64,000 nt of DNA from an uncultured Desulfobacteraceae bacterium (GCA_964591175.1 CAZQAF010000003.1:8514-72513), one strand, 5' to 3'; shown: positions 22,752 through 41,328, counted from the first letter of the stretch. The notes: a model not told the origin generated them from the sequence alone. Translations and numbers: made by a program.

Positions 22752-22802
22752 ACCAAAGCAGATAAAACGTTTAAAGAGACACCCCAAACCGAGCGTTTAT
22801 TA

Positions 22803-26664: not shown

Positions 26665-26676
26665 GAGGATCAAGAT

Positions 26677-26844
26677 TTGAATACCAGCGACAGATTGTAT
26701 TTTTCAAAACATGCATTAGATTCTAACTTCGATGCTTATTCAGATGAATTGGATATATTCGAATTCGAAGATAATTTGGACCAAAAGCATATTTTTCGTG
26801 AAAATAATTTCGATGAGGTTGATGATGGTTTATGGGAAGAATAA
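26677..26844 (+). CDS. Unlisted 55-aa highly acidic ORF (TTG start)
   Basis: My translation is MNTSDRLYFSKHALDSNFDAYSDELDIFEFEDNLDQKHIFRENNFDEVDDGLWEE. An AGGAGG RBS lies 8 nt upstream of the TTG. It is below the 60-aa cut-off of the ORF track. Confidence 0.4.
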   Translation: MNTSDRLYFSKHALDSNFDAYSDELDIFEFEDNLDQKHIFRENNFDEVDDGLWEE

Positions 26845-26865
26845 TCACCGGGACCTTAATGAAAA

Positions 26866-27228: not shown

Positions 27229-27254
27229 TGTACAGTTGAAGAGCACCTTGCAAC

Positions 27255-27273
27255 CCCGGTGAACCGGGATTTT
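27255..27273 (+). terminator. Intrinsic terminator after dksA
   Basis: CCCGG-tgaa-CCGGG is followed by ATTTTC. Confidence 0.55.
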
Positions 27274-27538
27274 CACCATACGGTATATTCGGGCAGGCCC
27301 GCTTCGGGCTAACAAGATGCAGCGCCGCTATGGCAGGATTCAATGCAAGGAATTTTGCCTATTTTAGATTCGCTTGATAGCCCGTCAGCTTCGTTTAAGC
27401 GGGATTTCCGCACACAGCATAACCGAGACAAGTCCGCTGCGCTCAAACAAACTCCGGAGAATGCGCTCGCTGCTGCCGGTCCAATAAAGCGGATCAAAGG
27501 AATAACTTTTTACGAAAATTCATAAAAAAGGAGATGGT

Positions 27539-27808
27539 ATGAACAAAGGAGATTTGATCAATGAAGTGGCAAAAGTCGTCAGCACAAAAAAGGAAGCTCA
27601 AGCAGCCGTGGATTGTGTGCTGGACTCGGTTATTAAAACACTCAAAAAAGGACAAGATGTTGCGTTAGTGGGTTTCGGCACATTTAAAGTCGTAAAAAGA
27701 AAAGCCAGAAAAGGCCGAAATCCTGCAACCGGTGAAGAAATAGATATTAAAGCGACCAATGCACCGAAATTCGTTCCGGGCAAAGCCTTAAAAGAAGCTG
27801 TAAAATAA
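27539..27808 (+). CDS. hup: HU-family nucleoid-associated DNA-binding protein
   Basis: MNKGDLINEVAK, GFGTFKVVKRKARKGRNPATGEEI and PKFVPGKALKEAV are present. A GGAG RBS precedes the start. Confidence 0.9.
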   Translation: MNKGDLINEVAKVVSTKKEAQAAVDCVLDSVIKTLKKGQDVALVGFGTFKVVKRKARKGRNPATGEEIDIKATNAPKFVPGKALKEAVK

Positions 27809-27831
27809 GTATACGAAGGGTTGGGCCGTAT

Positions 27832-27864
27832 GGCATAATTACCCATGGTGCCGATATGCCTTTT
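27832..27864 (+). terminator. Possible intrinsic terminator after hup
   Basis: GGCATA-N17-TATGCC is followed by TTTTCTCTTTT. Confidence 0.35.
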
Positions 27865-27980
27865 CTCTTTTCATCGGCGGCGAAGGATATGGCCCCCGCC
27901 GCCGGTGAATCGATTTAAAAGGATTTCGGGCATTGTAAATCGATTTTGTCGACCGTAAAAATTCTTTGATTGATTAAACA

Positions 27981-28256
27981 ATGAAGTTGCACCCTATCAA
28001 AATGGATAATATGCAAGGATCTTATAAAAAAATCAAAGGAGTTTTACTTCCTGTCAGATGGGATGATAACGGAAGTGTACAAGACATCGCCCTGTATGCA
28101 GATGACGAAAATGAATACATTATCGTAAAAAACATAAAAAGCAAGGAAATGCTCAAAATGCTTCGACAGCAAGTAGAATTATACGGGACGGTTCAGTTTA
28201 AAAATGGAAAAAATATCATTCTTGTTGAAAGATTTTCACAAGAACCCGACGAGTAA
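27981..28256 (+). CDS. Hypothetical protein (91 aa)
   Basis: ORF only. I recognise no motif. Confidence 0.35.
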   Translation: MKLHPIKMDNMQGSYKKIKGVLLPVRWDDNGSVQDIALYADDENEYIIVKNIKSKEMLKMLRQQVELYGTVQFKNGKNIILVERFSQEPDE

Positions 28257-28307
28257 AAATCCTGTATCTTCTTTTCCGGATTCAAGACTTTGGCCATCGA
28301 ATACCGG

Positions 28308-29228
28308 TTAAAGCTCAATTTCCATCCCCTCCTTGGCCACCACGATATTTAGATCCCTTTGATTTTTCACGAGCTTTTGACAGTGCTTTTCAAGTAAAAT
28401 CAATTCCTTGTCGGTCCGAAGGGGGTCGTGATGAAAAAGAACGACTTTTTTGACATTGGCCGCGAGGGCGGATTCAATGGCGTGCTCAAAAAATGAATGC
28501 CCCCAGCCTATTTTTGATGAAATATATTCTTCCCTTGTATATTGACAATCATGAATGAGAATATCCGCATCTCGATAAAAATCGAGTAATTTTTCATTTT
28601 CTTTCCGCGCTGCTTCTTCTCCTTCAACATGAACGATGGGATCAATATCCGCAGTTTTTTCGTCCATGGAAAAGATGTTCCTAAAAGGCTCCGTGTCGTA
28701 GGCGGTGCACAATACTTTACCGTCAAATTCAAATCGGTATCCGAGACAAAGCAGCGGATGATTCAAATATTTTGTTTTCAACGTGATCCCGTCTCCAAGA
28801 TCCATTTTGCTTTCACCGAGCTGAAAGTACTTGATATCTGCCCTAAGCTCGCCATGGAGCACCGGAAAGTAACGGTAACGTAAAAGATCGCCGATAATTT
28901 TTTCAAGGGAATCGTCTTCAAAGGTTATCGGTCCGTAAACTTTCAGTGTCGTACCCGGAATATAAATGGGTCTGAAAAAAGGAAAGCCGATGATATGATC
29001 CCAGTGGGTGTGGGTTATGAATATTTCGGTATTTATGGGACCTTTCTTAATATCTTCTGATACGAGACGATTTCCCAGCGGATGAATCCCGGTTCCGGCA
29101 TCAATGATGATCAGTCTGTTTTTTTCACTGAACCGTAATTCCAAGCAAGGGGTGTTGCCCCCGAATTCCACCGTACTCGGTCCGGGGTATGCAATAGAAC
29201 CGCGTACACCCCAGAAGCGAAGCTTCAT
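28308..29228 (-). CDS. MBL-fold metallo-hydrolase
   Basis: RFWGVRGS and THTHWDHIIGFPFF carry the HxHxDH motif. I prefer the start MKLRFWG at 29228, which has a GGAGG RBS. Confidence 0.75.
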   Translation of the reverse strand: MKLRFWGVRGSIAYPGPSTVEFGGNTPCLELRFSEKNRLIIIDAGTGIHPLGNRLVSEDIKKGPINTEIFITHTHWDHIIGFPFFRPIYIPGTTLKVYGPITFEDDSLEKIIGDLLRYRYFPVLHGELRADIKYFQLGESKMDLGDGITLKTKYLNHPLLCLGYRFEFDGKVLCTAYDTEPFRNIFSMDEKTADIDPIVHVEGEEAARKENEKLLDFYRDADILIHDCQYTREEYISSKIGWGHSFFEHAIESALAANVKKVVLFHHDPLRTDKELILLEKHCQKLVKNQRDLNIVVAKEGMEIEL

Positions 29229-29238
29229 GGTCACCTCC

Positions 29239-30147
29239 TCAGCCGGCAACTTTTAGAAATATCTGAGCCTTTTCTATCTCTTGCTCAACCTCACCGTTAA
29301 ACCCATCAATATCATAAAATGACAATTCCGCACTATCCCCGAAATACTGCATCGCTTCAGGGTTGACATCTTCCATATAGTGATTTCCGGAAAAGCCGAT
29401 TCGGGCGCTGTTTGCATAATAGTCCGAAAGAATAACGGTAAAAAGTATATCGTTCTGGACACCTTGATATGTTTCCGGGGTGTGATGATAGGTTATGGTA
29501 TCTGAAATTTCTTCTCCCAGTTTCCACTTTTCAGCAATAAGATTTCCAACGTGGGTATGATCAATTCCAAGGCACTTTTTTTCAGAAATAAAAAGCGGTT
29601 GAGGCTCTTTTTTCGGAACTTCCAGGATATTCATGTATTCATTTGCAAATTTGCTGTTTAATGGTATTTTACCGATGTCATGCAAAAGCCCTGCAATGAA
29701 GTATCCCTCCAGCAGCCTATCATCTATTTTACGTTTTTTGGCGACCAACTTGGCGATTACCCCGACGCCGAGGGAGTGCTCCCAGAACATATCCATGTTC
29801 AAAGCCCGAAAGTTTTGGCGTTTTCCAAAGGTGTTCAACACGGTAGCGCCGAGAACCAGATTTTTAACTGTATTCATCCCCACCATAATAACAGCTCGAA
29901 CCGGAGAGATGATTTCGCGGGTGAGACCAAAATAGGCGGAATTGACCAGCTGCATAATTTTTCCCGTCAATACAGGATCCAGGCTGATGACTTTGGTTAA
30001 ATCCGTCGGCGAGGTATTTGACTCTGCGCAGATTTCCAAAACTTTGTCGATGGTTGAAGGGAAGGGAGGCAATTCCCTGATATAATGATCGAGTATTGTT
30101 AATCTTTGACAATATTCCAACGGTTGACCATTACCCTTTGAATACAT
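29239..30147 (-). CDS. HDOD-domain signalling protein
   Basis: LPPFPSTIDKVLEI, AGLLHDIGKIPL and the overall HDOD pattern. Confidence 0.75.
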   Translation of the reverse strand: MYSKGNGQPLEYCQRLTILDHYIRELPPFPSTIDKVLEICAESNTSPTDLTKVISLDPVLTGKIMQLVNSAYFGLTREIISPVRAVIMVGMNTVKNLVLGATVLNTFGKRQNFRALNMDMFWEHSLGVGVIAKLVAKKRKIDDRLLEGYFIAGLLHDIGKIPLNSKFANEYMNILEVPKKEPQPLFISEKKCLGIDHTHVGNLIAEKWKLGEEISDTITYHHTPETYQGVQNDILFTVILSDYYANSARIGFSGNHYMEDVNPEAMQYFGDSAELSFYDIDGFNGEVEQEIEKAQIFLKVAG

Positions 30148-30388
30148 TTAGTCTATAACGGCATTTTCCCAAGAGGAGATCAGTAGACGATCTATTCAAT
30201 TTATCGACATCCTGATTAAAAACTTGAATCAATTGTATGGGTGCGGACTTAAATAACGTGCTATTTGCTTAAATTGATTTATCAGGGCATATTGCTGTAA
30301 ATAGAGCACAATATATAGCAACTTATTTTAATAAAGTACAATATATTCTAATTCAATAAAATTATATATAAATTATATATAATTTTAC

Positions 30389-30417
30389 TTGACACAAAAG
30401 GATGACAAGTTTATGAT
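30389..30417 (+). promoter_or_regulatory. Strong sigma-70-type promoter for the XRE gene
   Basis: TTGACA (30389-30394), a 17-nt spacer, then TATGAT (30412-30417). It is embedded in AT-rich direct repeats. Confidence 0.55.
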
Positions 30418-30465
30418 ATAACTATTAAATATATAAAAAAACAATACGGCGGAAAATTTTCTTCC

Positions 30466-30663
30466 ATGAGCAAAAATCACTTAAAGGAAATTAGAGAATC
30501 ATTAATGATGAGCAAGGCCGAGCTCTCCAGAAAAGCCGGCATATCACCCATTACCATCACCCGGATCGAGCAGGGGATGCCTTGCAGAATGGAAACAAAG
30601 CGTAAAATACTTCTATCTTTGGGGTATAAAATTTCCGATAGGAATAAAATTTTTTCGGATTAA
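30466..30663 (+). CDS. XRE-family helix-turn-helix transcriptional regulator (65 aa)
   Basis: IRESLMMSKAELSRKAGISPITITRIEQG is a Cro/C1-type HTH. Confidence 0.75.
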   Translation: MSKNHLKEIRESLMMSKAELSRKAGISPITITRIEQGMPCRMETKRKILLSLGYKISDRNKIFSD

Positions 30664-30678
30664 CAATTAAGGCAGAGT

Positions 30679-31326
30679 TCAAGGATTTATCTTAAGTTTT
30701 TGTCCGGGGTGGATGACACTTCCGCCACTTAGTTTGTTGATTTTTTGCAATTGTTTCACTGTCACGCCGTATCGACGGCCGATGGTATAGAGTGTTTCAC
30801 CGGATTTAACAACATGATATCGGTTCTTCAGCGTTCTCTCGGATATTTTTACAGTTTTTGAAGATGTTGTTTTTCGTACTCCAGCCTTTAACACCTGTTG
30901 TTTGAGCTTTCCAAATTCTTTCGAGATCTGATCCATCCTTGCCGTCAATGTTTTTTCCGAACGATCAAAGCGGGTCTTGAGCTGTTCGACCGATTGGGAC
31001 TGTTCTCCAATTTGCGCCATTCCGTAACGCATGGCCTCCAATTTCTGACCCTTTTCTTCAACGCTCTTAACGCGATCTTCCAATGCATTGAGCCTGTTTT
31101 CAAACCGGGCCATCTTGTTTCTGGCAAATAACAACAGCAAAAGAATCAATAAAATTAAAAAGCCGATGCCCAATTTTGATAAAGGGATTTTTTCAGAAAT
31201 TTTGGGAGCATTCGTTCCGAATTTTACCTTCTTTTTCTCTTTGAATAGAGAAAATTGTTCGTTATCATCAACATCATTCGAAACGCCTTTAAACCTATCC
31301 ATCCTGTCATCGTCATTTTGTGTCAT
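30679..31326 (-). CDS. LysM peptidoglycan-binding protein with a TM segment and a coiled coil
   Basis: The C-terminus YHVVKSGETLYTIGRRYGVTVKQLQKINKLSGGSVIHPGQKLKI is a LysM domain. A central hydrophobic helix is GIGFLILLILLLLLF. Confidence 0.8.
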   Translation of the reverse strand: MTQNDDDRMDRFKGVSNDVDDNEQFSLFKEKKKVKFGTNAPKISEKIPLSKLGIGFLILLILLLLLFARNKMARFENRLNALEDRVKSVEEKGQKLEAMRYGMAQIGEQSQSVEQLKTRFDRSEKTLTARMDQISKEFGKLKQQVLKAGVRKTTSSKTVKISERTLKNRYHVVKSGETLYTIGRRYGVTVKQLQKINKLSGGSVIHPGQKLKINP

Positions 31327-31651
31327 GGCAAAGCCTTAAAAAATTAGGGTTATTTATACTTTTTTGCTCAAATTAAAAACCTGTAGCATAATTTTTCGGC
31401 AATTGAAAGAACCGGTTTCACAAAAAAGAAAAATGACAGCAAAAAACGAAATATGAATCAGAACCTTCGATCATATACCTTCAGCAATCAGCCTATTATG
31501 CGAAACCAGATGCTTCCGCGCATATCACATTGTCTTACCTATAGAATTTTATTGACAAATTTTAGTATTCCTTATAGGTAAGAAATTTGTTTTTTTCAAT
31601 CCCAAGAAAATGAATTTCCTCAACACTGCTCTTTTTAAGGAGGATCGAACG

Positions 31652-32034
31652 ATGGCCAATGATGTAATCGGATCGGTTCTGGTTTTAGGAGGTGGAATTG
31701 CAGGAATGCAATCCGCTCTGGATCTCGCCAATGCAGGATATTACGTTTATCTCGTAGAAAAATCTCCGTCCATCGGCGGCGTTATGTCCCAACTGGACAA
31801 AACCTTCCCCACCAATGATTGCGCCATGTGAATTATCTCACCGAAACTGGTCGAGGTCGGCCGGCATCTGAACATTGAAATTATCACATATGCGGATCTG
31901 GAATCTGTTGAAGGATCCGTCGGGAACTTCAAAGTGAAGGTTAGAAAACGTGCCCGTAGTATCAATATGGATCTTTGCACGGGATGCGGCAACTGCGTTG
32001 AAAACTGCCCTGTTATGTATCAGGCGATCAGCTA
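31652..32034 (+). CDS. hdrA: HdrA N-terminal fragment (127 aa) with an in-frame UGA (Sec) at 31829-31831; truncated relative to full-length HdrA (split gene or pseudogene)
   Basis: [80 protein letters not shown]...[19 protein letters not shown]. It has the FAD Rossmann GxGxxG, the TNDC(S/A)M(C/U)ILxPK motif and the first ferredoxin CxxCxxCxxxCP. An AAGGAGG RBS precedes the ATG at 31652. The track shows only 31610-31831. Confidence 0.7.
31837..31855 (+). other. Weak candidate SECIS hairpin after the hdrA-fragment UGA
   Basis: CUCACC-GAAACU-GGU(C)GAG is 6 bp with one bulge and starts 6 nt after the UGA. Confidence 0.2.
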
Positions 32035-32168
32035 ATTTTATCGCCGTTGCTGTCTGTTATAATTGCAGTTTATGCTGAAAACCCGTTTTTTTGTTCAAAT
32101 GAATTGGAACGAAGACAATGGTACCTGACATTTAACCTTTTTACTTCATTGATAAGGGTTGTTCCGTT

Positions 32169-32654
32169 ATGGAAAATAAAATGGATATCAATTGGAAGAA
32201 GATAGATGATATCACCAATGCGTATAATAATGACGGTGAAGCGTTGTTGATGATTATGCAGGATATCGGCGACATTTATAATTATGTCCCCCCGGAGGTG
32301 ATTCCTGTTCTGGTTGAAAAACTTGGCGTAAAACCGAGCCTTGTTTACAGCGTTGCCACCTTTTATAAGACGATTAGCCTTGAACCTCGTGGAAAATACA
32401 TCGTCAGCGTCTGTACCGGCACCGCATGTCATGTGCGAGGTGCTGAAAAAATTATGGAAGCGTTGGAAGATCGTCTCCATGTCAAAAAAAGCGAAACCTC
32501 TGAAGATCGTCTGTTTACCCTGGAGGCTGTTCGATGTGTCGGGTGCTGCGCTTCCGGGCCGGTTATCACCGTCAATCAGAATACCCACGGAGGCTTAAAC
32601 CGTTCCAGTGTAGTAAAAGTCATCGATGAATATGAAAACCAACACGTTTCTTAA
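32169..32654 (+). CDS. NuoE/HoxE/HndA-like [2Fe-2S] thioredoxin-fold subunit
   Basis: VSVCTGTACHVRGAEKIMEAL and CVGCCASGPV provide the four Cys of the NuoE-type cluster. Confidence 0.85.
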   Translation: MENKMDINWKKIDDITNAYNNDGEALLMIMQDIGDIYNYVPPEVIPVLVEKLGVKPSLVYSVATFYKTISLEPRGKYIVSVCTGTACHVRGAEKIMEALEDRLHVKKSETSEDRLFTLEAVRCVGCCASGPVITVNQNTHGGLNRSSVVKVIDEYENQHVS

Positions 32655-32685
32655 GCGGCATGGGTAATGGAGGTTATATAACACC

Positions 32686-34539
32686 ATGGCAAAATTAGAA
32701 AATAGATCGGCACTGGAATCATATCGAAACGCTCTTTTGACCGATCAGGAAAACCGGAAAAAGAAATTAATTTCTCTTTGTGCGGGTTCGGGATGCGGTG
32801 CCTATGGAACTGCAAAAGTGTATGACGCGTTAGTTCAGGAGTTGGCCAAGCAGGGATTGCAAAAGGACGTGGAGGTTAAGCTTTCGGGTTGTCACGGTTT
32901 TTGTGAGAAAGGACCGATTCTGGTGATTCATCCCGAAGGCATATTTTACCCCCAGATTAAAGAGGATCATATTCCTGATATTGTTGAAAAAACAATTAAA
33001 AACGGGGAACTGGTTCAATCCCTCGTTTATAAGGATCCTTCCACAAAAGAAAAAATTACACAAGAAAAGGATGTTTCTTTTTATAAACTTCAGCAGAGAG
33101 TTATTTTTGGAAATAACGGCGCCATCGACCCCACCAGCATTGAAGACTATATTGCGGTTGGCGGATATCAAGCGCTTGAAAAAGCACTTTTCGATATGAC
33201 GCCCGAAGAAATTATCGATCAAGTTAAAAAATCGGGCTTGAGGGGTCGCGGAGGCGGTGGATTCCCCACCGGTATCAAGTGGGAAACCTGCCACAGGCAT
33301 AACGGTGACAAATACGTCATCTGCAATGCCGATGAAGGAGATCCCGGCGCCTATATGGATCGAAGCCTTTTGGAAGGCAATCCCCATCTGGTTTTGGAAG
33401 GAATGATTATTGGCGCCGTTGCCATCGGTTCCAATCAAGGCTATGTATATGTACGACACGAATACCCGCTGGCGGTAAAAAACTTGTCCATTGCACTGCG
33501 GCGGGCTGAAGAGCTCGGTTTTCTGGGCAAGAATATCTTGGGTTCCGGACTCGATTTAAACATTCGTATCAGTCGCGGCGGGGGGGCCTTTGTGTGTGGT
33601 GAATCCACCGCCTTAATGGCATCTCTGGAGGGGATGCCCGGACGGCCCCGGGCCAAATATATCCATACCGTAGAAAAAGGATTCCGCAACAACCCGTCGA
33701 ATCTGAACAACGTGGAAACATGGGCCAATGTACCGGTAATCATCGATAAGGGAGCGGATTGGTATGCTGCCATCGGCACCGAGAGAAGCAAGGGCACCAA
33801 AATTTTTTCACTGGTCGGCAAAGTGACGAATACGGGGCTGGTGGAAGTGCCCATGGGGACAACGCTGCGCACCATTATTTACGATATCGGCGGCGGTATT
33901 CCAAATAAAAAGAAATTCAAAGCGGTTCAAACCGGGGGACCGTCAGGAGGATGCATTCCGGAGCAATTTTTAAATTTGGGGGTTGATTTTGATGAGCTGA
34001 CGAAGGTCGGTTCCATCATGGGCTCCGGCGGCATGATCGTGATGGATCAGGACACTTGTATGGTGGACGTGGCTCGATATTTTCTTGATTTCCTAAAAGA
34101 GGAATCTTGCGGTCAATGCAATCCCTGCCGTGAGGGAATAACGGCGATGCTGGATATTCTGACCGATATATGTCAAGGCAACGGCAAAGAAGGCGACATC
34201 GAGCTTTTGGAAGATCTGGGAATGATGATTCAAAAGTTTTCCCTTTGCGGATTGGGAACTTCGGCACCCAATCCCGTGCTGACGACGATACTCTATTTCC
34301 GGGATGAATATGAAGCCCACATAAAGGACAAAAAATGTCCGTCGGGTGTTTGCAAACCTTTATTTCACTATGAGATTGATGAAGACGCCTGCACCGGCTG
34401 CACCCTTTGTGCCAAACGATGTCCCGAGGAAGCCATTACCGGTGAAAAGAAAAAACCGCATCATTTAGATATGGGAAAATGCATAAAGTGCGGCATCTGT
34501 TATGATGCCTGTAAGTTCGATGCCGTACTCATCCAATAA
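32686..34539 (+). CDS. NuoF/HndC/HydB-like NAD(H)-binding FMN flavoprotein with an N-terminal [2Fe-2S] domain and C-terminal 2x[4Fe-4S]
   Basis: GLRGRGGGGFPTGIKW is the FMN/NADH site. ESCGQCNPCREG is the N3 cluster. CTGCTLCAKRCP and CIKCGICYDACK are ferredoxin motifs. The N-terminus has LCAGSGCGAYG...SGCHGFCEKGP. Confidence 0.9.
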   Translation: MAKLENRSALESYRNALLTDQENRKKKLISLCAGSGCGAYGTAKVYDALVQELAKQGLQKDVEVKLSGCHGFCEKGPILVIHPEGIFYPQIKEDHIPDIVEKTIKNGELVQSLVYKDPSTKEKITQEKDVSFYKLQQRVIFGNNGAIDPTSIEDYIAVGGYQALEKALFDMTPEEIIDQVKKSGLRGRGGGGFPTGIKWETCHRHNGDKYVICNADEGDPGAYMDRSLLEGNPHLVLEGMIIGAVAIGSNQGYVYVRHEYPLAVKNLSIALRRAEELGFLGKNILGSGLDLNIRISRGGGAFVCGESTALMASLEGMPGRPRAKYIHTVEKGFRNNPSNLNNVETWANVPVIIDKGADWYAAIGTERSKGTKIFSLVGKVTNTGLVEVPMGTTLRTIIYDIGGGIPNKKKFKAVQTGGPSGGCIPEQFLNLGVDFDELTKVGSIMGSGGMIVMDQDTCMVDVARYFLDFLKEESCGQCNPCREGITAMLDILTDICQGNGKEGDIELLEDLGMMIQKFSLCGLGTSAPNPVLTTILYFRDEYEAHIKDKKCPSGVCKPLFHYEIDEDACTGCTLCAKRCPEEAITGEKKKPHHLDMGKCIKCGICYDACKFDAVLIQ

Positions 34540-34566
34540 CCTACCGATATAACAAGGTTAAAACCC

Positions 34567-37500
34567 ATGATAACGTTTAAACTAAACGGGAAAAAAGTTC
34601 AGGGAGAAGAAGGGCAGTATATCCTTCAAGTTGCTGAAAAATACGGGGTTGAAATTCCGACGCTGTGTCATCATAAAGGACTCGAACCCGCCGGAATGTG
34701 CCGTCTATGCACTGTGGAGCTTTTTGACGGTCGCCGAACTCGCTTTGTAACCGCCTGCAACTATCCCATTTGGGAAGGCATGGCAGTCAAAACCGACACC
34801 GAAACGGTACACGAAGGTCGAAAGCTGAATGTTGAACTGTTGATGGCCCGCTGCCCGGATATTCCTGTCATAAAGACGCTTGCGGCTCAATACGGTATTG
34901 AAGAACCGCGTTTTAAGATTAAAGATGACACTTGCATCCTTTGCGGCCTTTGCACTCGAATCTGTCAAAGAATGGGCAACAGCGCCATCAGCCTCACCGG
35001 CCGAGGGGTGGAGATGAAGGTGGATACCCCGTTTCACATCCAGACGGAGGTCTGTATGGCTTGCGGCGCCTGCGCTTTTGTCTGTCCCACGGGGCACATT
35101 ACCCTTGATAAAATCAAAGAACATATTTCCACACAAACGGTTATAAAGATTCCCTCGGAATACGATGCCGGTCTCAAAGGCCGGAAACCGATCTATGTGC
35201 CGTATGCCCAGGCCGTTCCCAATACACCCGCCATCGACCGGACGAAATGCGTCCATTTCAAGACGGATGGATGCAAGATATGCGCTGATTTTTGTCCGGT
35301 CGGCGCCATTGATCATTCACAGCAAGATGAATTTGTCGAGTTTGACGTGGGATCCATTGTTCTGGCCCCCGGATTTGACACCTTTGATCCCAGCCGGTTT
35401 GACACCTATGCCTATGCCCAGTTGCCCAATGTGGTCACCTCGTTGGAATTTGAGCGGATTCTTTCCGCCACCGGTCCCTTTTCAGGTCACCTGATCAGAC
35501 CGTCCGACCACAAGGAACCCAAAAAAATCGGCTGGCTGCAATGTGTCGGTTCCAGGGACCTCAACCGTTGCGATAATGCCTACTGCTCATCGGTGTGCTG
35601 CATGTATGCCATTAAACAGACCGTCATCGCAACGGAACACAGCAAGGATCCCCTTGACTGTGCGGTTTTTTACATGGATATGCGCACCCACGGCAAAGAC
35701 TTTGATAAATATTATGATAATGCCGAAAAACAAGGGGTCAGATTCGTCCGGTCCCGAATTCACACCATTGACCCGGTTCCGGGAACAGATGATGTGTCGG
35801 TCCGGTATATCGAGGAAGACGGAACCGTCAAAGAGGAAATCTTCGATATGTTTGTTTTGTCCGTTGGCCTTGAAATTAATCAGGATATTGCGGACCTTTC
35901 CAAACGCATCGGCATCGATCTCGATGAATATCGCTTTACGAAAACCGACAGTTTTCATCCCGTAGGCACCTCTGTGGAAGGCATCTATGCCTGCGGTGTG
36001 TTCACCGGTCCAAAGGATATTCCCCAATCGGTGATGGAAGCCAGCGCTTCGGCTTGTGCGGCAACAGAACACTTGGCATCGGCGCGCAATACCCGTACCA
36101 AGATCCTCGAACTCCCCCCTGAAAGAGATGTCAGCGGCGAACCCCCTAAAATCGGCGTATTTGTATGCAATTGCGGGATTAACATCGGCGGCGTGGTAAA
36201 AGTGCCGGAGGTGGTTAAGTACGCCAAAACGTTGCCCAATGTGGTGTATGTCGAAGAAAATCTCTTTAGCTGCAGCCAGGATACCCAGGATAAAATGTCC
36301 GACATCATCAATCAACAGGGGCTCAACCGCGTGGTTGTGGCCGCCTGCACCCCTAAAACCCATGAACCGCTGTTCCAGGAGACCCTGATTAACGCGGGGC
36401 TCAACAAGTATCTTTTTGAAATGGCCAATATCCGAAATCATGACTCCTGGGTCCATGCCAATGATCCGGATGCTGCCACCGAAAAAGCCAAGGATCTCAT
36501 TCGAATGGCGGTTGCGAAAACCAATCTTTTAGCCCCTTTGAAACAGACCGATCTCCCGGTATCCCATTCGGCCCTGGTGATCGGCGGGGGAATTGCCGGA
36601 ATGACGGCCGCGGTTTCGTTGGCTCATCAAGGGTATCCGGTAGACCTTGTTGAAAAATCCGGCGCTTTGGGCGGAAATGCTTTAATGTTGAGAAAAACGT
36701 CCCAAAACGAAGATGTCGGGGCTTTTGTTGAAGAACTTATCCAAGCCGTTAAATCCGAAGACCGAATTACCCTCCACACCGGAACCACCATCGGCAACGT
36801 GGATGGCTTTGTCGGCAATTTCAAAACAGAGCTTCGCAACCAAGGGGCAACACAAATCATCGAACACGGCGTGACGGTGATCGCCACCGGCGCCAAAGAA
36901 TACAAACCCGTCGAATACCTTTATGGAAAACATGATGCCGTGATGACCCATCTGGAACTCGACGAACTTTTCAAAAAAAACGATCCCAGACTTGACCAAA
37001 CCGAAAATGTAGTGTTTATTCAGTGCGTGGGATCCAGAGACAAAGAGCGACCTTACTGTTCGAAAGTATGCTGTACACATAGCGTCAAAAGTGCTATTGA
37101 CTTTAAGAAAAAAAATCCGAATGTGAATGTTGCGATTCTTTACAGGGATATTCGGACGTATGGCAAAAAAGAAGATCTATATCGCGAGGCAAGAGAGGCC
37201 GGGGTGCTCTTTTTTTCGTATTCCGTCGATCAAAAACCTGAGGTGACGTCCGATGGCGATCAGGTTGTGGTTGAATTTACGGATCGGATCCTCAATCGAA
37301 AATTGGCCGTGAAGGCCGATATTCTTTGTTTGGCTTCAGCCATTGAATCCCATTGGGATCACTCGCTGGCTCAGCTTTTTAAGGTACCGCTGGACTCGGA
37401 TGGATGGCTTTTGGAAGCCCATCAGAAATTGCGGCCGGTGGATTTTGCCAATGACGGTATCTTTCTGTGCGGCATGGCGCATTACCCGAAGCCCATCGAA

Positions 37501-37809
37501 GAAAGTATCGCACAGGCCCAGGCAGCGGCGGCAAGAGCGACCACCGTTCTGGCGCTGGAGAACATTAAGGTGGGCGGTATTGTCACGGATATTCGGGCCG
37601 AGTTGTGTTCGGGCTGCCTGGGATGCATCAATGTCTGCCCCTATGGCGCCATCACCTTCAATAGTCAAAAATTTGTGGCCGAAGTTAATGCGGCCCTGTG
37701 TAAAGGGTGCGGTGCCTGTGCGGCGGTATGCCCGTCGGAGGCACCCGCACTCATGGGCTTTAACAACTATCAACTGTACGCCCAGATCAAGAGCGCATTG
37801 AGCGCTTGA
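34567..37809 (+). CDS. 1080-aa fusion of a NuoG-N-like [2Fe-2S]/[4Fe-4S] module, an N-terminally truncated HdrA unit, and a second complete HdrA-like FAD unit with a C-terminal ferredoxin
   Basis: The N-terminus has CHHKGLEPAGMCRLCTV (2Fe-2S), CILCGLCTRICQ and CMACGACAFVCPTG. The HdrA collinear block is PSEYDAGLKGRKPIYVPYAQAVP...CKICADFCPVGAI...VGSIVLAPGFD...GWLQCVGSRD...CSSVCCMYAIKQ...IGVFVCNCGINIGG. A second unit has ALVIGGGIAGMTAAVSLA...FIQCVGSRD...CSKVCCTHS...CSGCLGCINVCP...CKGCGACAAVCP. No GxGxxG occurs before about residue 645. Confidence 0.85.
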   Translation: MITFKLNGKKVQGEEGQYILQVAEKYGVEIPTLCHHKGLEPAGMCRLCTVELFDGRRTRFVTACNYPIWEGMAVKTDTETVHEGRKLNVELLMARCPDIPVIKTLAAQYGIEEPRFKIKDDTCILCGLCTRICQRMGNSAISLTGRGVEMKVDTPFHIQTEVCMACGACAFVCPTGHITLDKIKEHISTQTVIKIPSEYDAGLKGRKPIYVPYAQAVPNTPAIDRTKCVHFKTDGCKICADFCPVGAIDHSQQDEFVEFDVGSIVLAPGFDTFDPSRFDTYAYAQLPNVVTSLEFERILSATGPFSGHLIRPSDHKEPKKIGWLQCVGSRDLNRCDNAYCSSVCCMYAIKQTVIATEHSKDPLDCAVFYMDMRTHGKDFDKYYDNAEKQGVRFVRSRIHTIDPVPGTDDVSVRYIEEDGTVKEEIFDMFVLSVGLEINQDIADLSKRIGIDLDEYRFTKTDSFHPVGTSVEGIYACGVFTGPKDIPQSVMEASASACAATEHLASARNTRTKILELPPERDVSGEPPKIGVFVCNCGINIGGVVKVPEVVKYAKTLPNVVYVEENLFSCSQDTQDKMSDIINQQGLNRVVVAACTPKTHEPLFQETLINAGLNKYLFEMANIRNHDSWVHANDPDAATEKAKDLIRMAVAKTNLLAPLKQTDLPVSHSALVIGGGIAGMTAAVSLAHQGYPVDLVEKSGALGGNALMLRKTSQNEDVGAFVEELIQAVKSEDRITLHTGTTIGNVDGFVGNFKTELRNQGATQIIEHGVTVIATGAKEYKPVEYLYGKHDAVMTHLELDELFKKNDPRLDQTENVVFIQCVGSRDKERPYCSKVCCTHSVKSAIDFKKKNPNVNVAILYRDIRTYGKKEDLYREAREAGVLFFSYSVDQKPEVTSDGDQVVVEFTDRILNRKLAVKADILCLASAIESHWDHSLAQLFKVPLDSDGWLLEAHQKLRPVDFANDGIFLCGMAHYPKPIEESIAQAQAAAARATTVLALENIKVGGIVTDIRAELCSGCLGCINVCPYGAITFNSQKFVAEVNAALCKGCGACAAVCPSEAPALMGFNNYQLYAQIKSALSA

Positions 37810-37830
37810 TCCATTGAAAAGGAGAAAAAT

Positions 37831-38322
37831 GTGAACGAGGAGAGATTTGAGCCTAAAATCATCGCTTTTATGTGTAACTGGTGTGCATACGGGGCGGCCG
37901 ATCTGGCGGGTGTCAGTAGACTGGCATACCCCCCCAATATTCGTCCCATCCGGGTCATGTGCTCCGCCACGGTGTCGCCGCATCACATTCTAAGAGCGTT
38001 TCAAAGCGGCGCCGATGGCGTCCTCGTGGGCGGCTGACACGTCGGAGACTGCCATTACCTGTATGGTAATTATATGACGATCAAACGGATGACATTTCTG
38101 CAGGAACTTTTGTCCTTTATGGGACTGGAAGGACGGTTGCATTTGGACTGGATATCTTCGGCGGAAGCCCAAAAATTTGTGCAAGTCGTCACCAATTTTA
38201 CAAATAAAATAAAATCATTGGGCCCCAGCCCTCTGTCCGGCGACTTTGACATGTCCGCCGTTATGAATGCGTGCGGAGCATGCGAAGCGGTGCAGGATAC
38301 TGCGAGCGTGGAGGAAGGATGA
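37831..38322 (+). CDS. mvhD: MvhD (methyl-viologen-reducing hydrogenase delta subunit-like [2Fe-2S] protein) with Sec at 38035-38037
   Basis: [22 protein letters not shown]...[22 protein letters not shown]...[12 protein letters not shown]. It is collinear with methanogen MvhD, where GGCHxGDCHY has Cys at the UGA position. Track ORFs 37831-38037 and 38074-38322 are in the same frame. GTG start with a GGAG RBS. Confidence 0.85.
38054..38070 (+). other. Candidate SECIS hairpin after the mvhD UGA
   Basis: AUUACC-UGUAU-GGUAAU has a 6-bp stem, and the loop lies about 23 nt after the UGA. Confidence 0.3.
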
Positions 38323-38323
38323 T

Positions 38324-39121
38324 ATGCAGGAACAAATCAAACAGTGGCTTGAACAAGGTAACATCGATATTTTTTTAGGGTATAAGATGATTCAGGGTCA
38401 CCCGCTGCCCTATTGCTTCACCAAGGATAACCCGGATGATCTCAAGGATCTGATTGTCGGAAATGCCAGATATTCCCTTGAAAAAATGGCCACAAAAATC
38501 GCTGCTGAACATAAGGATCTGAAAATAGGACTTCTAACCCGGGATTGCAATCAACGGGCCTTGAATGTGCTTTATATCTGGAACCAGTTGAATCCGGAAA
38601 ACATTAAAACCATAGGGGTCAATTGCTGCCCGTCCAATCTCAAGGAACACGGCGATTGTTCCTATTTGGAACCGGAACTTATCCCGCCAATCAAGAAAAT
38701 GATCGGCATCGACAACAACATGCAAGTTAAAGCAGCCGAAGAATTCAACCAGGATGAAAGATTCAACCGGTGGATGTATGAATTTCAGAAATGCATCAAA
38801 TGTTACGGCTGTCGAGATATTTGTCCGGTTTGCTTTTGCAAGGAATGCAGTCTTGAACACACCGACCTGATCGCCACCGGCAGTATCCCGCCGGAGATTC
38901 CGATTTTTCATCTGGTTCGGGCAGTTCATATGGCGGGCCGGTGTATTGACTGCGGTCTGTGCGAGGATGCCTGCCCGGTTGATATTCCGTTACGGTTGCT
39001 CTATCGAAAGGTCAATGAAATCGTGACCGACATATTCGATTACACCACCGGAACCCGTGCGGACCAATCACCGTTTAATATGCTGGGAGAAGAGGTAACA
39101 CTGAAACCCAAGCCTATTTAA
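38324..39121 (+). CDS. Iron-sulfur electron-transfer protein with two CxxCxxCxxxCP clusters (HdrC/FrhB-like accessory subunit)
   Basis: CIKCYGCRDICPVCFC and CIDCGLCEDACPVDIP are present. The ATG at 38324 lies 1 nt after the mvhD stop. The track ORF start (38267) overlaps mvhD. Confidence 0.65.
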   Translation: MQEQIKQWLEQGNIDIFLGYKMIQGHPLPYCFTKDNPDDLKDLIVGNARYSLEKMATKIAAEHKDLKIGLLTRDCNQRALNVLYIWNQLNPENIKTIGVNCCPSNLKEHGDCSYLEPELIPPIKKMIGIDNNMQVKAAEEFNQDERFNRWMYEFQKCIKCYGCRDICPVCFCKECSLEHTDLIATGSIPPEIPIFHLVRAVHMAGRCIDCGLCEDACPVDIPLRLLYRKVNEIVTDIFDYTTGTRADQSPFNMLGEEVTLKPKPI

Positions 39122-39217
39122 TTACAAACGATGGAAGATGTGATGCCTTTGCTACCCTAACTGCGGGAAAGCATTAATATTCAAGGAAAATATTCCATAC
39201 AATAAGGAGCGATACGA

Positions 39218-41254
39218 ATGGATTTTAAGATCATTCCTTCAACATGTTCATATTGCGGCACGGGCTGCGGTGTCCTTTTTCAGGTGATGGACGGCCGTCT
39301 TGTCGATACCCTGCCGATGAAAACCCATCCGGTGAACCAGGGAAGACTTTGTATTAAGGGATGGAATCTCCACGAACATGTTATCAGCGACAAGCGTCTC
39401 AAATCGCCTTTGATCAAAAAGGACGGCGAATTGCAGGAAACCACATGGGACGAGGCCATAAAAACGACGGCCGACAGGCTCAAAGCCGTTATTAAAGATC
39501 ATGGGCCGGACAGCGTCGCCGTGCTGGCCTCTGCAAAAATTACCAACGAGGAGAATTATCTGGTCCAAAAATTTGCAAGGGCGGTGGTGGGAACCAATAA
39601 TGTGGATCACTGCGCCCGGCTCTGACATTCCTCTACCGTGGCAGGTCTTGCCGCAGCATTCGGAAGTGGGGCCATGACCAATTCCATCGCTGAAATTGAA
39701 GATTCGGCGAGTATTTTCATCATCGGTTCGAATACGTCCGCGTGTCATCCGCTCATTGCCCGGCGTGTCTTCAGGGCCAAGGAAAAAGGGGCCAAACTCA
39801 TCGTGGCCGACCCCAGAAATATTCAATTGGCTCGTTTCGCGGACGTTGCCGTCCAACAGAGGCTCGGCAGCGATGTGGCGTTATTAAACGGCATGATGCA
39901 TATTATATTAAAAAACGGCTGGCACGATAAAACCTACATCGAAAACAGAACCGAAGGGTTTGAGGATTTCAAGTCGGTGGTCGAGTTATATACACCGGAT
40001 AAGGTTGAAACCATCACAGGTGTGGCCCAAAGCGATCTTGAAAAAATGGCTGAACTTTACGCCGTCAACTCACCGGCGGCACTCCTCTATGCCATGGGGA
40101 TTACACAGCATACCACCGGCGTGGACAACGTCAAGTCATGCTGCAATCTGGCCATGCTCTGCGGCAATGTGGGCGTAAGAAGCGGCGGTGTGAACCCCTT
40201 GAGAGGCCAGAACAATGTTCAGGGCGCCTGCGACATGGGCGGCTTGCCCAATGTGTTTCCGGCTTATCAGCCGGTAACGGTCGAAGCCAACAATGAAAAA
40301 TTTTCCAAAGCATGGGGAAAACCGCTTCCTGCCGAAATCGGCTATACCATTACCGATATGATCCAGGCCATGAACGACGGGAAATTAAAGGCCCTCTATA
40401 TCGTCGGAGAGAATCCCAAACTGAGCGACCCCAACCAGAACCACCTGGAGGATGCCCTGGAAAAACTCGATCTTTTGATTTGCCAGGATATCTTTCTGTC
40501 TGAAACCGCCCAAAAAGCCGACGTGGTTCTTGCGGCGGTTTCTGTGGCGGAAAAGGAGGGGACCTTTACCAATACCGAGCGGCGCTGTATGAAAGTGAAC
40601 AAGGCCATCGATCCTTTGGGAAACACGCTCAACGACTGGGATATCATTTCAAGATTATCCACGGCCATGGGCTACGAGATGCACTATGGGAATCCCGAAG
40701 AGATTTTCAACGAAATGACCGCTCTGACACCGAGTTACGGCGGCATGACCTATGAAAGGCTCGGCCTTGACGGGCTTCAATGGCCCTGCCCCAACGCCGA
40801 GCACCCCGGAACGCCGTTTTTGCACAAAGATCAGTTTACCCGGGGAAAAGGTCTTTTCCATGCCATCGAATATCTCGACCCCGCGGAGATGCCGGATGAC
40901 GAATACCCCTATTGGCTCACTACCGGCAGGATGTTCGCGCATTACCATACCGGTACCATGACGCGCGTATCAAGACATTTGGATACCGAGCAAAAAACCG
41001 GATATGTGGAAATCAACCCCAAAGACGCCAAGGTGCTGGGGGTTAATGACGGCGATATCGTGCACCTTGCCACTCGCAGGGGCGAAACCAAAGTGCCGGC
41101 CAGGGTCAGCAAAGTGGTCGAACCCGGCGTGCTCTTCGTGCCGTTTCATTTTGCTGAAAGCCCGGCCAATATACTTACCAATTCTGCCTGTGATCCCATC
41201 GCCAAAATTCCGGAGTATAAGGTTTGTGCGGTAAAAATCGAGAAAGCCGCATAG
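39218..41254 (+). CDS. fdhA: Formate dehydrogenase catalytic subunit (Mo/W-bisPGD), cytoplasmic, selenocysteine at 39623-39625
   Basis: The N-terminal 4Fe-4S motif is CSYCGTGCG, with no twin-arginine signal. [28 protein letters not shown] is the classic FDH Sec site. Track ORFs 39218-39625 and 39638-41254 are in the same frame. Confidence 0.9.
39638..39654 (+). other. Candidate SECIS hairpin for the fdhA UGA
   Basis: GUGGCA-GGUCU-UGCCGC has a 6-bp stem including one G-U pair. The GGUCU apical loop resembles the E. coli fdhF SECIS loop and lies about 19-23 nt after the UGA. Confidence 0.55.
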
Positions 41255-41288: not shown

Positions 41289-41328
41289 AAAGGCCTTTGA
41301 AAAATTTACTGTTTTTCAAAGGCCTTTT
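41289..41328. terminator. Bidirectional intrinsic terminator between fdhA and the convergent formyltransferase gene
   Basis: A perfect 16-bp stem, AAAGGCCTTTGAAAAA-tttactg-TTTTTCAAAGGCCTTT, is flanked by A-rich sequence on one side and T-rich sequence on the other. Confidence 0.75.

Follow-up and report, generated by a model that had tools for sequence, protein, structure and literature searches.

The DNA analyzed here is a stretch of 64,000 nucleotides from an uncultured Desulfobacteraceae bacterium (GCA_964591175.1, CAZQAF010000003.1:8514-72513), hereafter referred to as the window, and the subject of this study is an operon that brings together genes for a NuoE/NuoF pair, an HdrA-like flavoprotein and a formate dehydrogenase (Fdh). 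The original prediction had recognized six co-directional genes on the plus strand with spacings of 1-96 nt, and both the coordinates (32169-32654, 32686-34539, 34567-37809, 37831-38322, 38324-39121 and 39218-41254) and the spacings (gaps of 31, 27, 21, 1 and 96 nt) were confirmed by open reading frame (ORF) listing and translation. The unit so described was incomplete, given that a seventh gene upstream of it (31652-32035, plus strand), encoding a selenoprotein of 127 aa that we call sHdrA, had been overlooked. The operon starts at 31652 instead of 32169 and consists of seven genes (31652-41254), in the order sHdrA, nuoE, nuoF, hdrL, mvhD, fdhB' and fdhA, separated by gaps of 1-133 nt. Also overlooked were three selenocysteine (Sec) codons, the identity of the fdhB' product and the precedent of the BamBCDEFGHI enzyme.

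The sHdrA gene is preceded at 8 nt by an AAGGAGG ribosome-binding site, and an intergenic region of 325 nt (31327-31651) separates it from a divergent LysM gene (30679-31326, opposite strand). A perfect TTGACA hexamer is found in this region at 31553-31558, with no good -10 hexamer after it, and inspection by eye of the 325 nt that precede 31652 revealed no sigma-54 GG-N10-GC (-24/-12) element. The promoter scan returned 20 promoter-like sites, which is not above the shuffled controls (13.9 +/- 4.4), and weak sigma-70-like matches are located upstream of nuoE and of fdhA. The sole good terminator-like hairpin of the operon follows fdhA and likely marks the end of the transcription unit. It is a 16-bp perfect palindrome at 41289-41327, between the convergent genes fdhA and fmt, that was scored as a minus-strand terminator and is symmetrical; it is probably a bidirectional terminator, and it also gave spurious weak Rfam miRNA matches on both strands.

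Three genes of the operon contain an in-frame TGA codon, at 31829-31831 (sHdrA), 38035-38037 (mvhD) and 39623-39625 (fdhA), all of them at known Cys/Sec positions: Sec60 of sHdrA (Cys57-x2-Sec60), Sec69 of MvhD (GG-U-HVGDCHY) and Sec136 of FdhA (HCARL-U-H). Relatives were collected by a scan of 185,579 genomes, one per species, which detected at least 589 relatives of HdrL, and 80 loci (designated here by L numbers) were fetched, inspected and compared by tblastn with the seven proteins of the window. The sHdrA position is TGA in 72 homologous segments and Cys in 6, the mvhD position is TGA in 57 of 71 homologues and Cys in the other 14, and the fdhA position is TGA in 28 of 29. In true orthologues Cys is the only alternative to TGA at the three codons, and the conserved reading frame resumes past each of them. 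Gene callers break these genes up, in locus L081 into pieces of 55+77 aa, 135+538 aa and 59 aa, and likewise in L085 and L086.

A hairpin lies downstream of each UGA on the plus strand, at 13-19 nt counted from the U of UGA. For fdhA, a permissive search matched the selenocysteine insertion sequence (SECIS) family SECIS_3 of Rfam at 39620-39678 with 45.5 bits (E = 5.2e-8), below the gathering score of 63, and the hairpin itself (39636-39656, loop GGUCU) shows compensatory changes at three stem pairs across 15 homologues; at gathering thresholds Rfam identified no RNA family in the window. The putative SECIS element of mvhD (38035-38070, hairpin 38054-38070) has a stem that is invariant, synonymous sites included, in 15 of 15 homologues. 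In that of sHdrA (31829-31864, hairpin 31847-31864, loop AGGU) a block of 21 nt at 31847-31867 (CTGGTCGAGGTCGGCCGGCA) is identical in all 15 homologues, whose proteins are 84-96% identical, and flanking third-codon (synonymous) positions vary freely around both invariant hairpins. The invariance of the sHdrA block points to strong constraint at the nucleotide level and would fit a SECIS element of a kind that Rfam does not include. When the segments after each UGA were folded from the single sequence, the z-scores were insignificant (-0.3 to -0.8), and it was the comparison of homologues alone that was informative. We conclude that the operon encodes three selenoproteins, the case being strong for fdhA and resting on UGA conservation and invariant hairpins for mvhD and sHdrA. 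No tRNA, hence no tRNA-Sec, was detected by the tRNA scan of the window, and no sel gene family turned up among the scanned window ORFs, in which no search aimed at sel genes was made.

A domain parse with Pfam and NCBIfam hidden Markov models, as proposed in the original prediction, found the domains it had named and bore out its NuoE-like, NuoF-like (with extra 2Fe-2S and 2x4Fe-4S domains), MvhD and FdhA assignments. The first of these proteins (32169-32654, plus strand, 161 aa) is a NuoE/HydC/BfuC-like [2Fe-2S] subunit of the thioredoxin type (PF01257, 1e-45, residues 12-155; NuoE/HoxE matches in NCBIfam) with the Cys pattern C-x4-C ... C-x3-C, and agrees with BfuC in being NuoE-like with a C1 [2Fe-2S] cluster. 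The second (32686-34539, plus strand, 617 aa) is a NuoF/HydB/BfuB-like subunit composed of an N-terminal [2Fe-2S] domain, an FMN/NAD(H) core, an N3-type [4Fe-4S] cluster, a His/Cys 'B2' site and a C-terminal 2x[4Fe-4S] domain (Pfam 2Fe-2S_thioredx, Complex1_51K, NADH_4Fe-4S and Fer4). It matches over its full length HydB of the bifurcating NiFe-Bfu hydrogenase (7t2r_B, 7.5e-236) and BfuB of the tungsten aldehyde oxidoreductase "plug" (9mqx_B, 1.2e-234). Alignment to 7t2r_B indicated that the B2 ligands C438, C476, H525, C531 and C536 are all kept, as are the four Cys of the N-terminus and the two Cys motifs of the C-terminus. In BfuB, B1 is a [4Fe-4S] cluster, B2 the His/Cys cluster, B3/B4 the C-terminal 2x[4Fe-4S] and B5 the N-terminal [2Fe-2S], and it is the B2 ligands together with the N- and C-terminal cluster domains that separate bifurcating BfuB from non-bifurcating NuoF homologues (PMC9304861). 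The NuoE/NuoF pair forms a HydBC/Bfu-type core in which every Bfu-specific cluster ligand is present.

The following gene, hdrL (34567-37809, plus strand), encodes a fusion protein of 1080 aa in which Pfam detects Fer2_4, 2x[4Fe-4S] and two HdrA-like units, and which stays below the cutoff of the NCBIfam HdrA models (HdrA2, 783 bits vs 1100). Its residues 1 to about 190 are BfuA-like, with one [2Fe-2S] and 2x[4Fe-4S], and residues 18-179 match BfuA (9mqx_A) at 1.7e-37. There follow the second half of the inserted ferredoxin domain of HdrA (about 193-250, with C228/236/239/243), the rest of a thioredoxin reductase (TrxR)-like unit 1 (about 255-515, with the cluster residues Cys326/340/344/345 and Lys350), an HdrA N-terminal domain (519-660), a TrxR-like unit 2 (665-1000, GGGIAG at 673-678) and a C-terminal 2x[4Fe-4S] domain (1005-1065). 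Residues 155-450 correspond to HdrA 246-517, 519-757 to 4-243 and 934-1079 to 511-654; the N-terminal [4Fe-4S], inserted ferredoxin and C-terminal ferredoxin domains of HdrA are all present, permuted over the two units. Type 2 BfuA proteins have one [2Fe-2S] and two [4Fe-4S] clusters, are devoid of clusters A3 and A5 and feed the core (PMC9304861). The N-terminal part of HdrL shows the same features, namely Fer2_4 and two complete Cys motifs, with no motif for a His-ligated cluster; it differs in being fused and not free. From its domains, HdrL is a BfuA protein fused to a permuted HdrA pseudo-dimer, like BamE.

The two HdrA-type FAD units of the original prediction are thus present in the 1080-aa protein, except that unit 1 has no FAD-binding segment of its own within HdrL: that segment is sHdrA, in which the N-terminus of unit 1 stands as a protein of its own. 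This small protein aligns with HdrA from Methanococcus maripaludis at residues 142-255 (1.1e-48) and contains the FAD-binding GGGIAG, the redox-active Cys57-x2-Sec60 pair (DCxxC motif) and the CxxCxxCxxxCP motif that comes first in the inserted ferredoxin domain. The invariant Cys and Lys residues of HdrL were taken from an alignment of 45 sequences. The C228/236/239/243 motif is invariant in the 45 homologues and has no partner motif inside HdrL, the two motifs ahead of it pairing together, as in BfuA, and the C-terminal motif of sHdrA (C109-C119) is the one that precedes C228/236/239/243 in unsplit relatives. Because this orphan motif matches the motif that ends sHdrA, we infer that the inserted ferredoxin domain is assembled in trans, across sHdrA and HdrL.

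As to the flavin sites, unit 1 has an invariant Lys350 past the CC motif and the CxxU pair, and the hallmarks of an HdrA module (FAD-binding GxGxxG, the CxxC(U) pair, and the CVGSRD...CxxxCC [4Fe-4S] cluster with a Lys after it) are complete only when sHdrA and HdrL 255-515 are taken together; unit 2 has GGGIAG and the cluster Cys, lacks the CxxC pair, and its Lys is not conserved. In BamE, TrxR1 holds the bifurcating FAD, with Lys280 and with Cys59-Cys62 proposed as low-potential relay, whereas TrxR2 holds a structural, non-bifurcating FAD (bioRxiv 10.64898/2026.04.10.717634). By this comparison unit 1 carries the hallmarks of the bifurcating FAD, and unit 2 looks structural, as in BamE. An AlphaFold2 monomer of HdrL computed with the 45-sequence alignment had a mean predicted local distance difference test (pLDDT) score of 67.5, with unit 2 confident and residues 1-260 below 50.

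The protein agrees with the definition of HdrL (two FAD/NAD-type domains, followed by mvhD, often a selenoprotein), Sec being located on the detached sHdrA, and the 'NADH-binding / glutamate synthase' part of the original HdrL description was not seen here. Direct binding of NAD(P)H by HdrL, proposed in 2009, is not predicted, because in both units the second Rossmann (nucleotide-binding) position is taken by a CVGSRD cluster motif.

The three remaining genes would form the formate dehydrogenase arm. MvhD/FlpD (37831-38322, plus strand, GTG start, 163 aa) is a [2Fe-2S] adaptor (PF02662, 8.5e-52) that matches MvhD of Methanothermobacter wolfeii (5odc_D) at 4.3e-49, with Sec69 aligned to a conserved Cys. 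The next protein, FdhB' (38324-39121, plus strand, 265 aa, with ATG 38324 a more likely start than 38267), had been described as a 2x[4Fe-4S] "FeS protein"; it is indeed of the ferredoxin type, and what had been missed is its relationship to FdhB. Its single sequence matches methanogen FdhB (9t1s_M) at 7.3e-34, and in a profile comparison residues 5-253 align to FdhB 29-379 at 3.1e-43, with an internal gap of about 100 residues corresponding to FdhB 129-228. FdhB' is thus a shortened methanogen-type FdhB. No FrhB_FdhB Pfam match was obtained for it, and the FrhB-type FAD/F420 domain of the F420-type methanogen FdhB is absent; the missing segment presumably includes the FAD/F420-binding part, to judge from the FrhB/FdhB fold, the C-terminal Fe-S part being kept.

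FdhA (39218-41254, plus strand, 678 aa) is the catalytic subunit with a molybdenum or tungsten bis(pyranopterin guanine dinucleotide) cofactor (TIGR01591, 853 bits against a cutoff of 666). As originally predicted, it has no signal peptide or Tat signal; because it opens directly with the Fe4S4 domain, from residue 4, it is cytoplasmic. Its best solved relative is the tungsten FdhA2 of the M. maripaludis Hdr-Vhu-Fdh complex (9t1s_L, full length, 8.3e-247), and it agrees with FdhA of the F420-type methanogen enzymes. It has no NuoG-like extension, and the alpha subunits of NAD-type (FdsA) formate dehydrogenases align to it only from their residue ~254-291 on. FdhA accordingly belongs to the natively short FdhF/F420-type FdhA class, the type that docks on Hdr.

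HdrL has hundreds of full-length homologues, labelled "heterodisulfide reductase subunit A", in metagenome-assembled genomes (MAGs) of Desulfobacterales and Desulfatiglandales. When the co-occurrence of the gene block, another analysis suggested in the original prediction, was followed in the 80 loci, the combined form was found in close relatives of the window and elsewhere resolved into two operon types, A and B. The NuoEF-linked kind accounts for about 42 of the 80 loci. In type A, present in dozens of Desulfobacterales and Desulfatiglandales genomes, sHdrA, NuoE, NuoF and an HdrL with the 2Fe-2S N-terminus are followed, as in the window, by MvhD, and then, unlike in the window, by a distant FdhB-like Fe-S protein (~25% identical) and, as in locus L013 (5040-15193), by Fer4_22 (AsrA/HydB-like), FAD/NAD-binding (AsrB/HydG-like) and DsrC proteins, with no FdhA. 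None of the 21 loci with the 2Fe-2S extension, an upstream NuoF and enough downstream sequence has an Fdh gene. Of 33 type-A loci, 29 have sHdrA as a gene of its own upstream of nuoE (27 counted by script, with L083 and L084 added from gene calls), whereas in 35 of 36 type-B loci HdrL includes the corresponding segment. L013-like operons are themselves very common in Desulfobacterales (L002, L010, L017 and about 20 other loci) and look like an NADH/ferredoxin-to-DsrC system, no characterization of which was found in the literature searched.

Type B has a large tandem HdrA with Sec in the motif DCxM-U-I(I/L)(S/A)PK, to which type the C-terminal 600 residues of the window HdrL belong, followed, in 17-21 loci, by Sec-MvhD, FdhB' and Sec-FdhA that are 75-88%, 54-80% and 65-82% identical to those of the window. 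It differs in having the FAD-binding N-terminus fused, no 2Fe-2S/BfuA domain and no adjacent nuoEF. The nearest relatives of the window FdhA (70-74% identity) are likewise in operons whose HdrL has no 2Fe-2S extension. HdrA-like/mvhD/fdhA neighbourhoods of this kind have been noted in genome surveys, as the original prediction stated: the HdrL-MvhD-Fdh arrangement at loci V/VI of Desulfobacterium autotrophicum HRM2 in 2009 (PMC2702500) and an HdrL-MvhD-FdhB-FdhA locus in Desulfurivibrio dismutans in 2025 (PMC12142623). On the NuoEF side, nuoEF-mvhD-hdrA units have been noted in Desulfotignum phosphitoxidans (PMC4046663).

The combined form is confined to the window and its close relatives L081/L082 (96% identical), L086 (89%, on a contig that ends just upstream of hdrL, with the upstream genes beyond view), L085 (79%) and probably L001 (83%), the nearest genome being the 96%-identical Desulfobacterales MAG GCA_022340885.1; this arrangement is real and well conserved. 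A sister clade at 81% identity occupies the same genomic neighbourhood (L083, L087, L088) and has no MvhD-Fdh. In this clade (L083:4689-15090, L087, L088) the 1103-aa NuoF is a fusion with a GltD-like NADPH domain, the genes after HdrL encode a 590-aa Nitrate_red_gam-like membrane Fe-S protein and a 295-aa CCG-domain protein, and a second complete type-A set lies directly downstream.

Region-wise and sliding-window identities divide HdrL between the two operon types. Residues 1-250 are 70-90% identical to type A and 30-46% to type B (73-84% to type A for residues 1-150), residues 270-420 are equidistant from both, and past residue 450 type B is closer by 10-30 points, the C-terminal half being 40-55% identical to type A and the C-terminal ferredoxin domain 75-79% identical to type B vs 41-46% to type A. 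Because type-A identity at 1-250 gives way to type-B identity past 450, the crossover is placed inside hdrL, and the operon is a rare recombinant of two common Desulfobacterota operons. The HdrL regions that track the Fdh partner, 520-660 and 1001-1080, correspond by homology to the N-terminal and the C-terminal part of HdrA, and in M. maripaludis the Fdh docking site consists of the regions at the N and C termini of HdrA plus a VhuD helix (PMC13518236). This is indirect evidence that one polypeptide, HdrL, docks both NuoEF and the Fdh arm, which argues against two unrelated enzymes placed side by side.

The closest characterized analogue is the class II benzoyl-CoA reductase (BCRII) of Geobacter metallireducens, Bam[(BC)2DEFGHI]2, which has been studied by cryo-EM and in which Bfu and HdrA modules are coupled in series (bioRxiv 10.64898/2026.04.10.717634), and which has been classed as 'Bam-Bfu' (PMC9304861). 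At the level of domains, without direct sequence comparison to Bam proteins, both systems couple a HydBC/Bfu-type module (BamG corresponding to NuoE, BamH to NuoF and BamI to the BfuA-like domain) to a fused HdrA dimer (BamE) in which the first unit has the Lys near N5 and the CxxC/CxxU pair and the second has neither; in both, a Sec-containing MvhD-type adaptor (BamF) joins the modules, and a pterin enzyme with an Fe-S partner forms the catalytic arm. In contrast to Bam, the catalytic arm here is FdhA/FdhB' instead of the tungsten aldehyde oxidoreductase (AOR)-type BamB/BamC, no BamD (HdrBC/D-like) high-potential output is found in the operon, BfuA is joined to the HdrA dimer where Bam has a free BamI, the N-terminus of HdrA unit 1 is encoded apart, as the 127-aa selenoprotein, and MvhD has the canonical methanogen length, lacking the BamF extension of more than 100 residues. 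No protein of the aldehyde:ferredoxin oxidoreductase (AFOR) family or with a CCG domain is encoded in the operon, and the AOR gene at 19091-20917 is separate, 10.7 kb off.

The closest solved homologues of the window proteins are those of the methanogen FdhAB-MvhD/VhuD-HdrABC complexes (7BKB, 8RVU, 9T1S; PMC13518236), with matches of 8e-247 for FdhA, 3e-43 for FdhB, 4e-49 for MvhD, 2e-151 for the HdrA-like parts and 1e-48 for sHdrA. The Sec sites of the window (HdrA CxxC, MvhD GGC, FdhA active site) align to conserved archaeal Cys, and FdhA has the classic HCARL-U-H. Unlike the methanogen systems, the operon belongs to a bacterial host (Desulfobacterales), lacks HdrBC and CoM-S-S-CoB, has an FdhB' without about 100 internal residues, and has a fused, permuted and split HdrA pseudo-dimer instead of a homodimer, with a NuoEF/BfuA module attached. 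The original claim that the window offers no HdrBC partner held: no CCG, HdrB, HdrC or HdrD domain was detected among the operon genes, nor in any of the window's 36 larger ORFs, of which 29 were scanned with Pfam and seven were read from the syntenic loci L081/L082. A third comparison is with the Fdh-Bfu enzymes, HylABC-FdhF2 of Gottschalkia acidurici and FdhFeFe-Bfu of Clostridium autoethanogenum, for which the reaction of formate with NAD+ and ferredoxin has been demonstrated (PMC9304861). They share with the window a BfuBC core, a BfuA-type subunit, a separate Sec/W FdhA and the reaction proposed below, and differ in having no HdrA, MvhD or FdhB-type subunit, the Fdh electrons passing straight to BfuA.

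On this evidence we consider it fairly probable, though far from assured, that the seven genes encode one soluble, cytoplasmic, selenium-dependent formate dehydrogenase/CO2 reductase complex coupling formate/CO2 to NAD(H) and ferredoxin. The coupling of formate to NAD(H) and ferredoxin that the original prediction proposed still appears the most plausible overall reaction. What the sequences establish is the content of genes, domains and ligands, the recoding for selenocysteine, the splitting of HdrA and the recombinant origin; the joint complex of all seven products, the direction of electron flow and the acceptors are proposed. The catalytic arm would consist of FdhA (Sec136, Mo/W-pterin) and FdhB', which would deliver electrons to the MvhD [2Fe-2S] adaptor (Sec69); the fused HdrA pseudo-dimer would have its unit 1 built in trans from sHdrA and HdrL ~193-515; and NuoE and NuoF, with BfuA fused on the HdrL N-terminus, would form the NAD(H)/ferredoxin module. 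The cofactor-binding inventory comprises, for FdhA, the Mo/W-pterin with Sec and a single [4Fe-4S]; for FdhB', Fe-S clusters; for MvhD, one [2Fe-2S]; for sHdrA plus HdrL, two FAD sites, about nine [4Fe-4S] and one [2Fe-2S]; and for NuoEF, FMN plus six clusters. By homology to the methanogen complexes and BCRII, electrons would run from formate through FdhB' and MvhD to the unit-1 FAD, and NuoEF would be joined to NAD(H) and ferredoxin via the fused BfuA clusters, with a net reaction of roughly 2 formate + NAD+ + Fd(ox) <-> 2 CO2 + NADH + Fd(red). Coupling could take place at the unit-1 FAD, the high-potential electron passing by BfuA and FMN to NAD+ and the low-potential one to ferredoxin; alternatively, the Bfu FMN/cluster site could do the coupling and HdrL serve as a wire. 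It is reasonable to suppose that such an enzyme would oxidize formate as part of the oxidative Wood-Ljungdahl route in a complete-oxidizing Desulfobacterales bacterium, or reduce CO2 during autotrophic growth.

Several points weigh against this interpretation. The two potential bifurcating sites would be redundant, and the Fdh-Bfu enzymes perform the formate:NAD+/ferredoxin reaction with no HdrA. If both modules bifurcated in series from formate, the acceptors would average about -455 mV by our estimate, against -430 mV for formate, which would be endergonic, so that at most one site could be energetically coupling in the formate-oxidizing direction. The related operons always hold a high-potential partner (DsrC in type A; CCG and membrane Fe-S proteins in the 81% sister clade), and a fourth, unlinked high-potential partner may be needed here too. 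In BCRII the Bfu module is an electron input and not an output. The mvhD and sHdrA hairpins show invariance and no covariation among the 15 homologues, and the AlphaFold monomer is poor over residues 1-260, which include the HdrL part of the putative trans ferredoxin domain.

A stronger version of the proposed formate-linked complex, which we put forward tentatively and regard as rather less probable than not, is that the Bfu-type and HdrA-type modules are both energetically active in one formate/CO2 particle, with the bifurcating unit assembled in trans and a Cys-Sec selenenylsulfide relaying the low-potential electron, which would be the second natural case after BCRII.

Of the competing explanations, the one that survives best is series coupling toward CO2 reduction as in BCRII, which we nevertheless regard as unlikely. 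NADH and reduced ferredoxin would be confurcated at NuoEF, mid-potential electrons would reach the unit-1 FAD through the BfuA domain and MvhD, low-potential electrons would pass through the inserted ferredoxin domain to FdhB'/FdhA and CO2, and the high-potential electron would leave by the unit-1 [4Fe-4S] to an unlinked partner such as DsrC, an electron-transferring flavoprotein, HdrD/CCG or a quinone-linked protein. The subunits do match BamGHI, BamE and BamF one to one at the domain level, the fused HdrA dimer and the Sec MvhD-type adaptor included; the cluster that feeds BamD/HdrC is kept in unit 1 (Cys326/340/344/345), and high-potential partners are found in the parent and sister operons (DsrC with AsrAB-like proteins in L013; CCG with a membrane Fe-S protein in L083, L087 and L088). 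However, the CO2/formate couple (-430 mV) needs no sub-ferredoxin potential, so that the series arrangement would waste energy, and no candidate acceptor gene was found among the scanned window ORFs or in the conserved L081/L085 neighbourhood. Moreover, in methanogens FdhAB is an electron input that docks via MvhD/VhuD and not a low-potential output, and the mvhD-fdhB'-fdhA gene order suits an input role.

We find it improbable that the locus holds two adjacent, independent enzymes, sHdrA-NuoEF-HdrL working between NADH and an unlinked acceptor and MvhD-FdhB'-FdhA serving another HdrA or ferredoxin. The two halves do occur alone, in the 21 type-A loci with no Fdh and the 17-21 type-B loci with no NuoEF, and weak promoter-like matches precede nuoE and fdhA. 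Against this, such matches are no commoner than in shuffled sequence, the gaps are only 21 nt (hdrL-mvhD) and 1 nt (mvhD-fdhB'), and MvhD-FdhB'-FdhA follows HdrL in every type-B locus and never stands alone in the loci examined. Because the crossover lies within hdrL and the C-terminal 600 residues are of the Fdh-linked type, the window HdrL is cognate to the Fdh arm and at the same time bears the BfuA domain that is linked to NuoEF.

Very little speaks for the domain swap put forward in the original prediction, according to which the operon is a rearranged NAD-dependent formate dehydrogenase whose NuoG-like FdhA extension was transferred to HdrA. Alpha subunits of NAD-type enzymes do bear such an extension, and HdrL 2-180 weakly matches 7vw6_A and 7e5z_A (about 2e-17), but the extension is far closer to BfuA (1.7e-37) and to the HydA N-terminus (1.4e-25), it lacks the His-ligated [4Fe-4S] motif of NuoG/FdsA (a single Cys, C96, lies between residues 65 and 122), and it occurs on the HdrL of 21 loci without any Fdh gene. 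FdhA, for its part, is a full-length member of the short FdhF/F420-type class and has no NuoG-like 2Fe-2S/4Fe-4S extension of the FdsABG kind. The swap was rejected on these grounds: a short-class FdhA and a BfuA-like extension that travels with NuoEF. Finally, the idea that the in-frame stops mark mvhD, fdhA and the small upstream ORF as pseudogenes of a decaying cluster, which the splitting or shortening of these three genes by standard gene callers might suggest, has practically no chance of being right and was rejected, given that TGA recurs at exactly these codons (57/71, 28/29 and 72 segments) with Cys as sole alternative in true orthologues, that conserved sequence continues after each TGA, and that the post-UGA hairpins show covariation or synonymous-site invariance, with a SECIS_3 match in fdhA.

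The rest of the window holds futalosine menaquinone genes, UbiD/UbiX, AFOR, amino-acid transporters, an indolepyruvate:ferredoxin oxidoreductase and two sigma-54 activators; no Wood-Ljungdahl gene family turned up among the scanned window ORFs, in which no search aimed at such genes was made. The tungsten-type AFOR gene (AFOR_N, AFOR_C; 19091-20917, plus strand) adjoins a branched-chain amino-acid ABC transporter and an aminotransferase, and its presence would show that the organism uses tungstopterin enzymes and ferredoxin-linked catabolism. On the minus strand, 48909-55643 encodes a TRAP transporter (DctPQM), a phenylacetate-CoA-ligase-like AMP-binding enzyme and a two-subunit indolepyruvate/2-oxoacid:ferredoxin oxidoreductase, and looks like a cluster for utilization of aromatic amino acids or arylacetates that would make reduced ferredoxin; also on the minus strand, 446-6653 contains two MqnC/MqnE-like radical-SAM genes, VitK2_biosynth (MqnA/D-like), UbiX-like and UbiD-like genes, which indicate a probable futalosine route to menaquinone. 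Sigma-54 activators and PAS histidine kinases recur beside HdrL operons, in the window at 10359-12128 and 24476-25870 (plus strand) and in the related loci at L085:1-4000, L086:7089-9488 and L013:1115-4708. The region 22000-32000 (glycosyltransferase, DksA, HU, HDOD and LysM genes) has a G+C content of 0.38-0.43, against 0.46-0.52 in the operon and higher values in the rest of the window.

The types of module assembled in this operon have all been described: HdrL in 2009, the Bfu family in 2022, and the coupling of the two, for benzoyl-CoA reductase, in the 2026 preprint. For the combination of Bfu, split HdrL and Fdh, the trans-split HdrA unit and the recombination inside hdrL, the literature searched gave no description apart from mentions in genome surveys, and, in agreement with the original prediction, no biochemical characterization of the arrangement turned up there. 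The three selenoproteins and the split gene, cut by gene callers to pieces of 55-135 aa, imply that such systems are systematically mis-annotated in MAGs.

HdrL proteins have been annotated in sulfate reducers since 2009, none with an assigned function, and NuoEF-HdrL operons are very common; the operon described here ties this module to simple, assayable substrates, namely formate, NAD+ and ferredoxin. Coupling of both types of bifurcation module has so far been demonstrated only in benzoyl-CoA reductase, and a formate-linked relative would show whether it is a general design principle. If both modules were active, the stoichiometry and redox span could go beyond those of Fdh-Bfu and Fdh-HdrABC, for example toward CO2 or ferredoxin reduction with a high-potential acceptor, and the enzyme would be the first assayable model with easy substrates for the NuoEF-HdrL systems that are widespread in sulfate reducers. 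A formate-linked relative would in addition reveal how NADH and ferredoxin are kept in balance when complete-oxidizing sulfate reducers use the Wood-Ljungdahl pathway.

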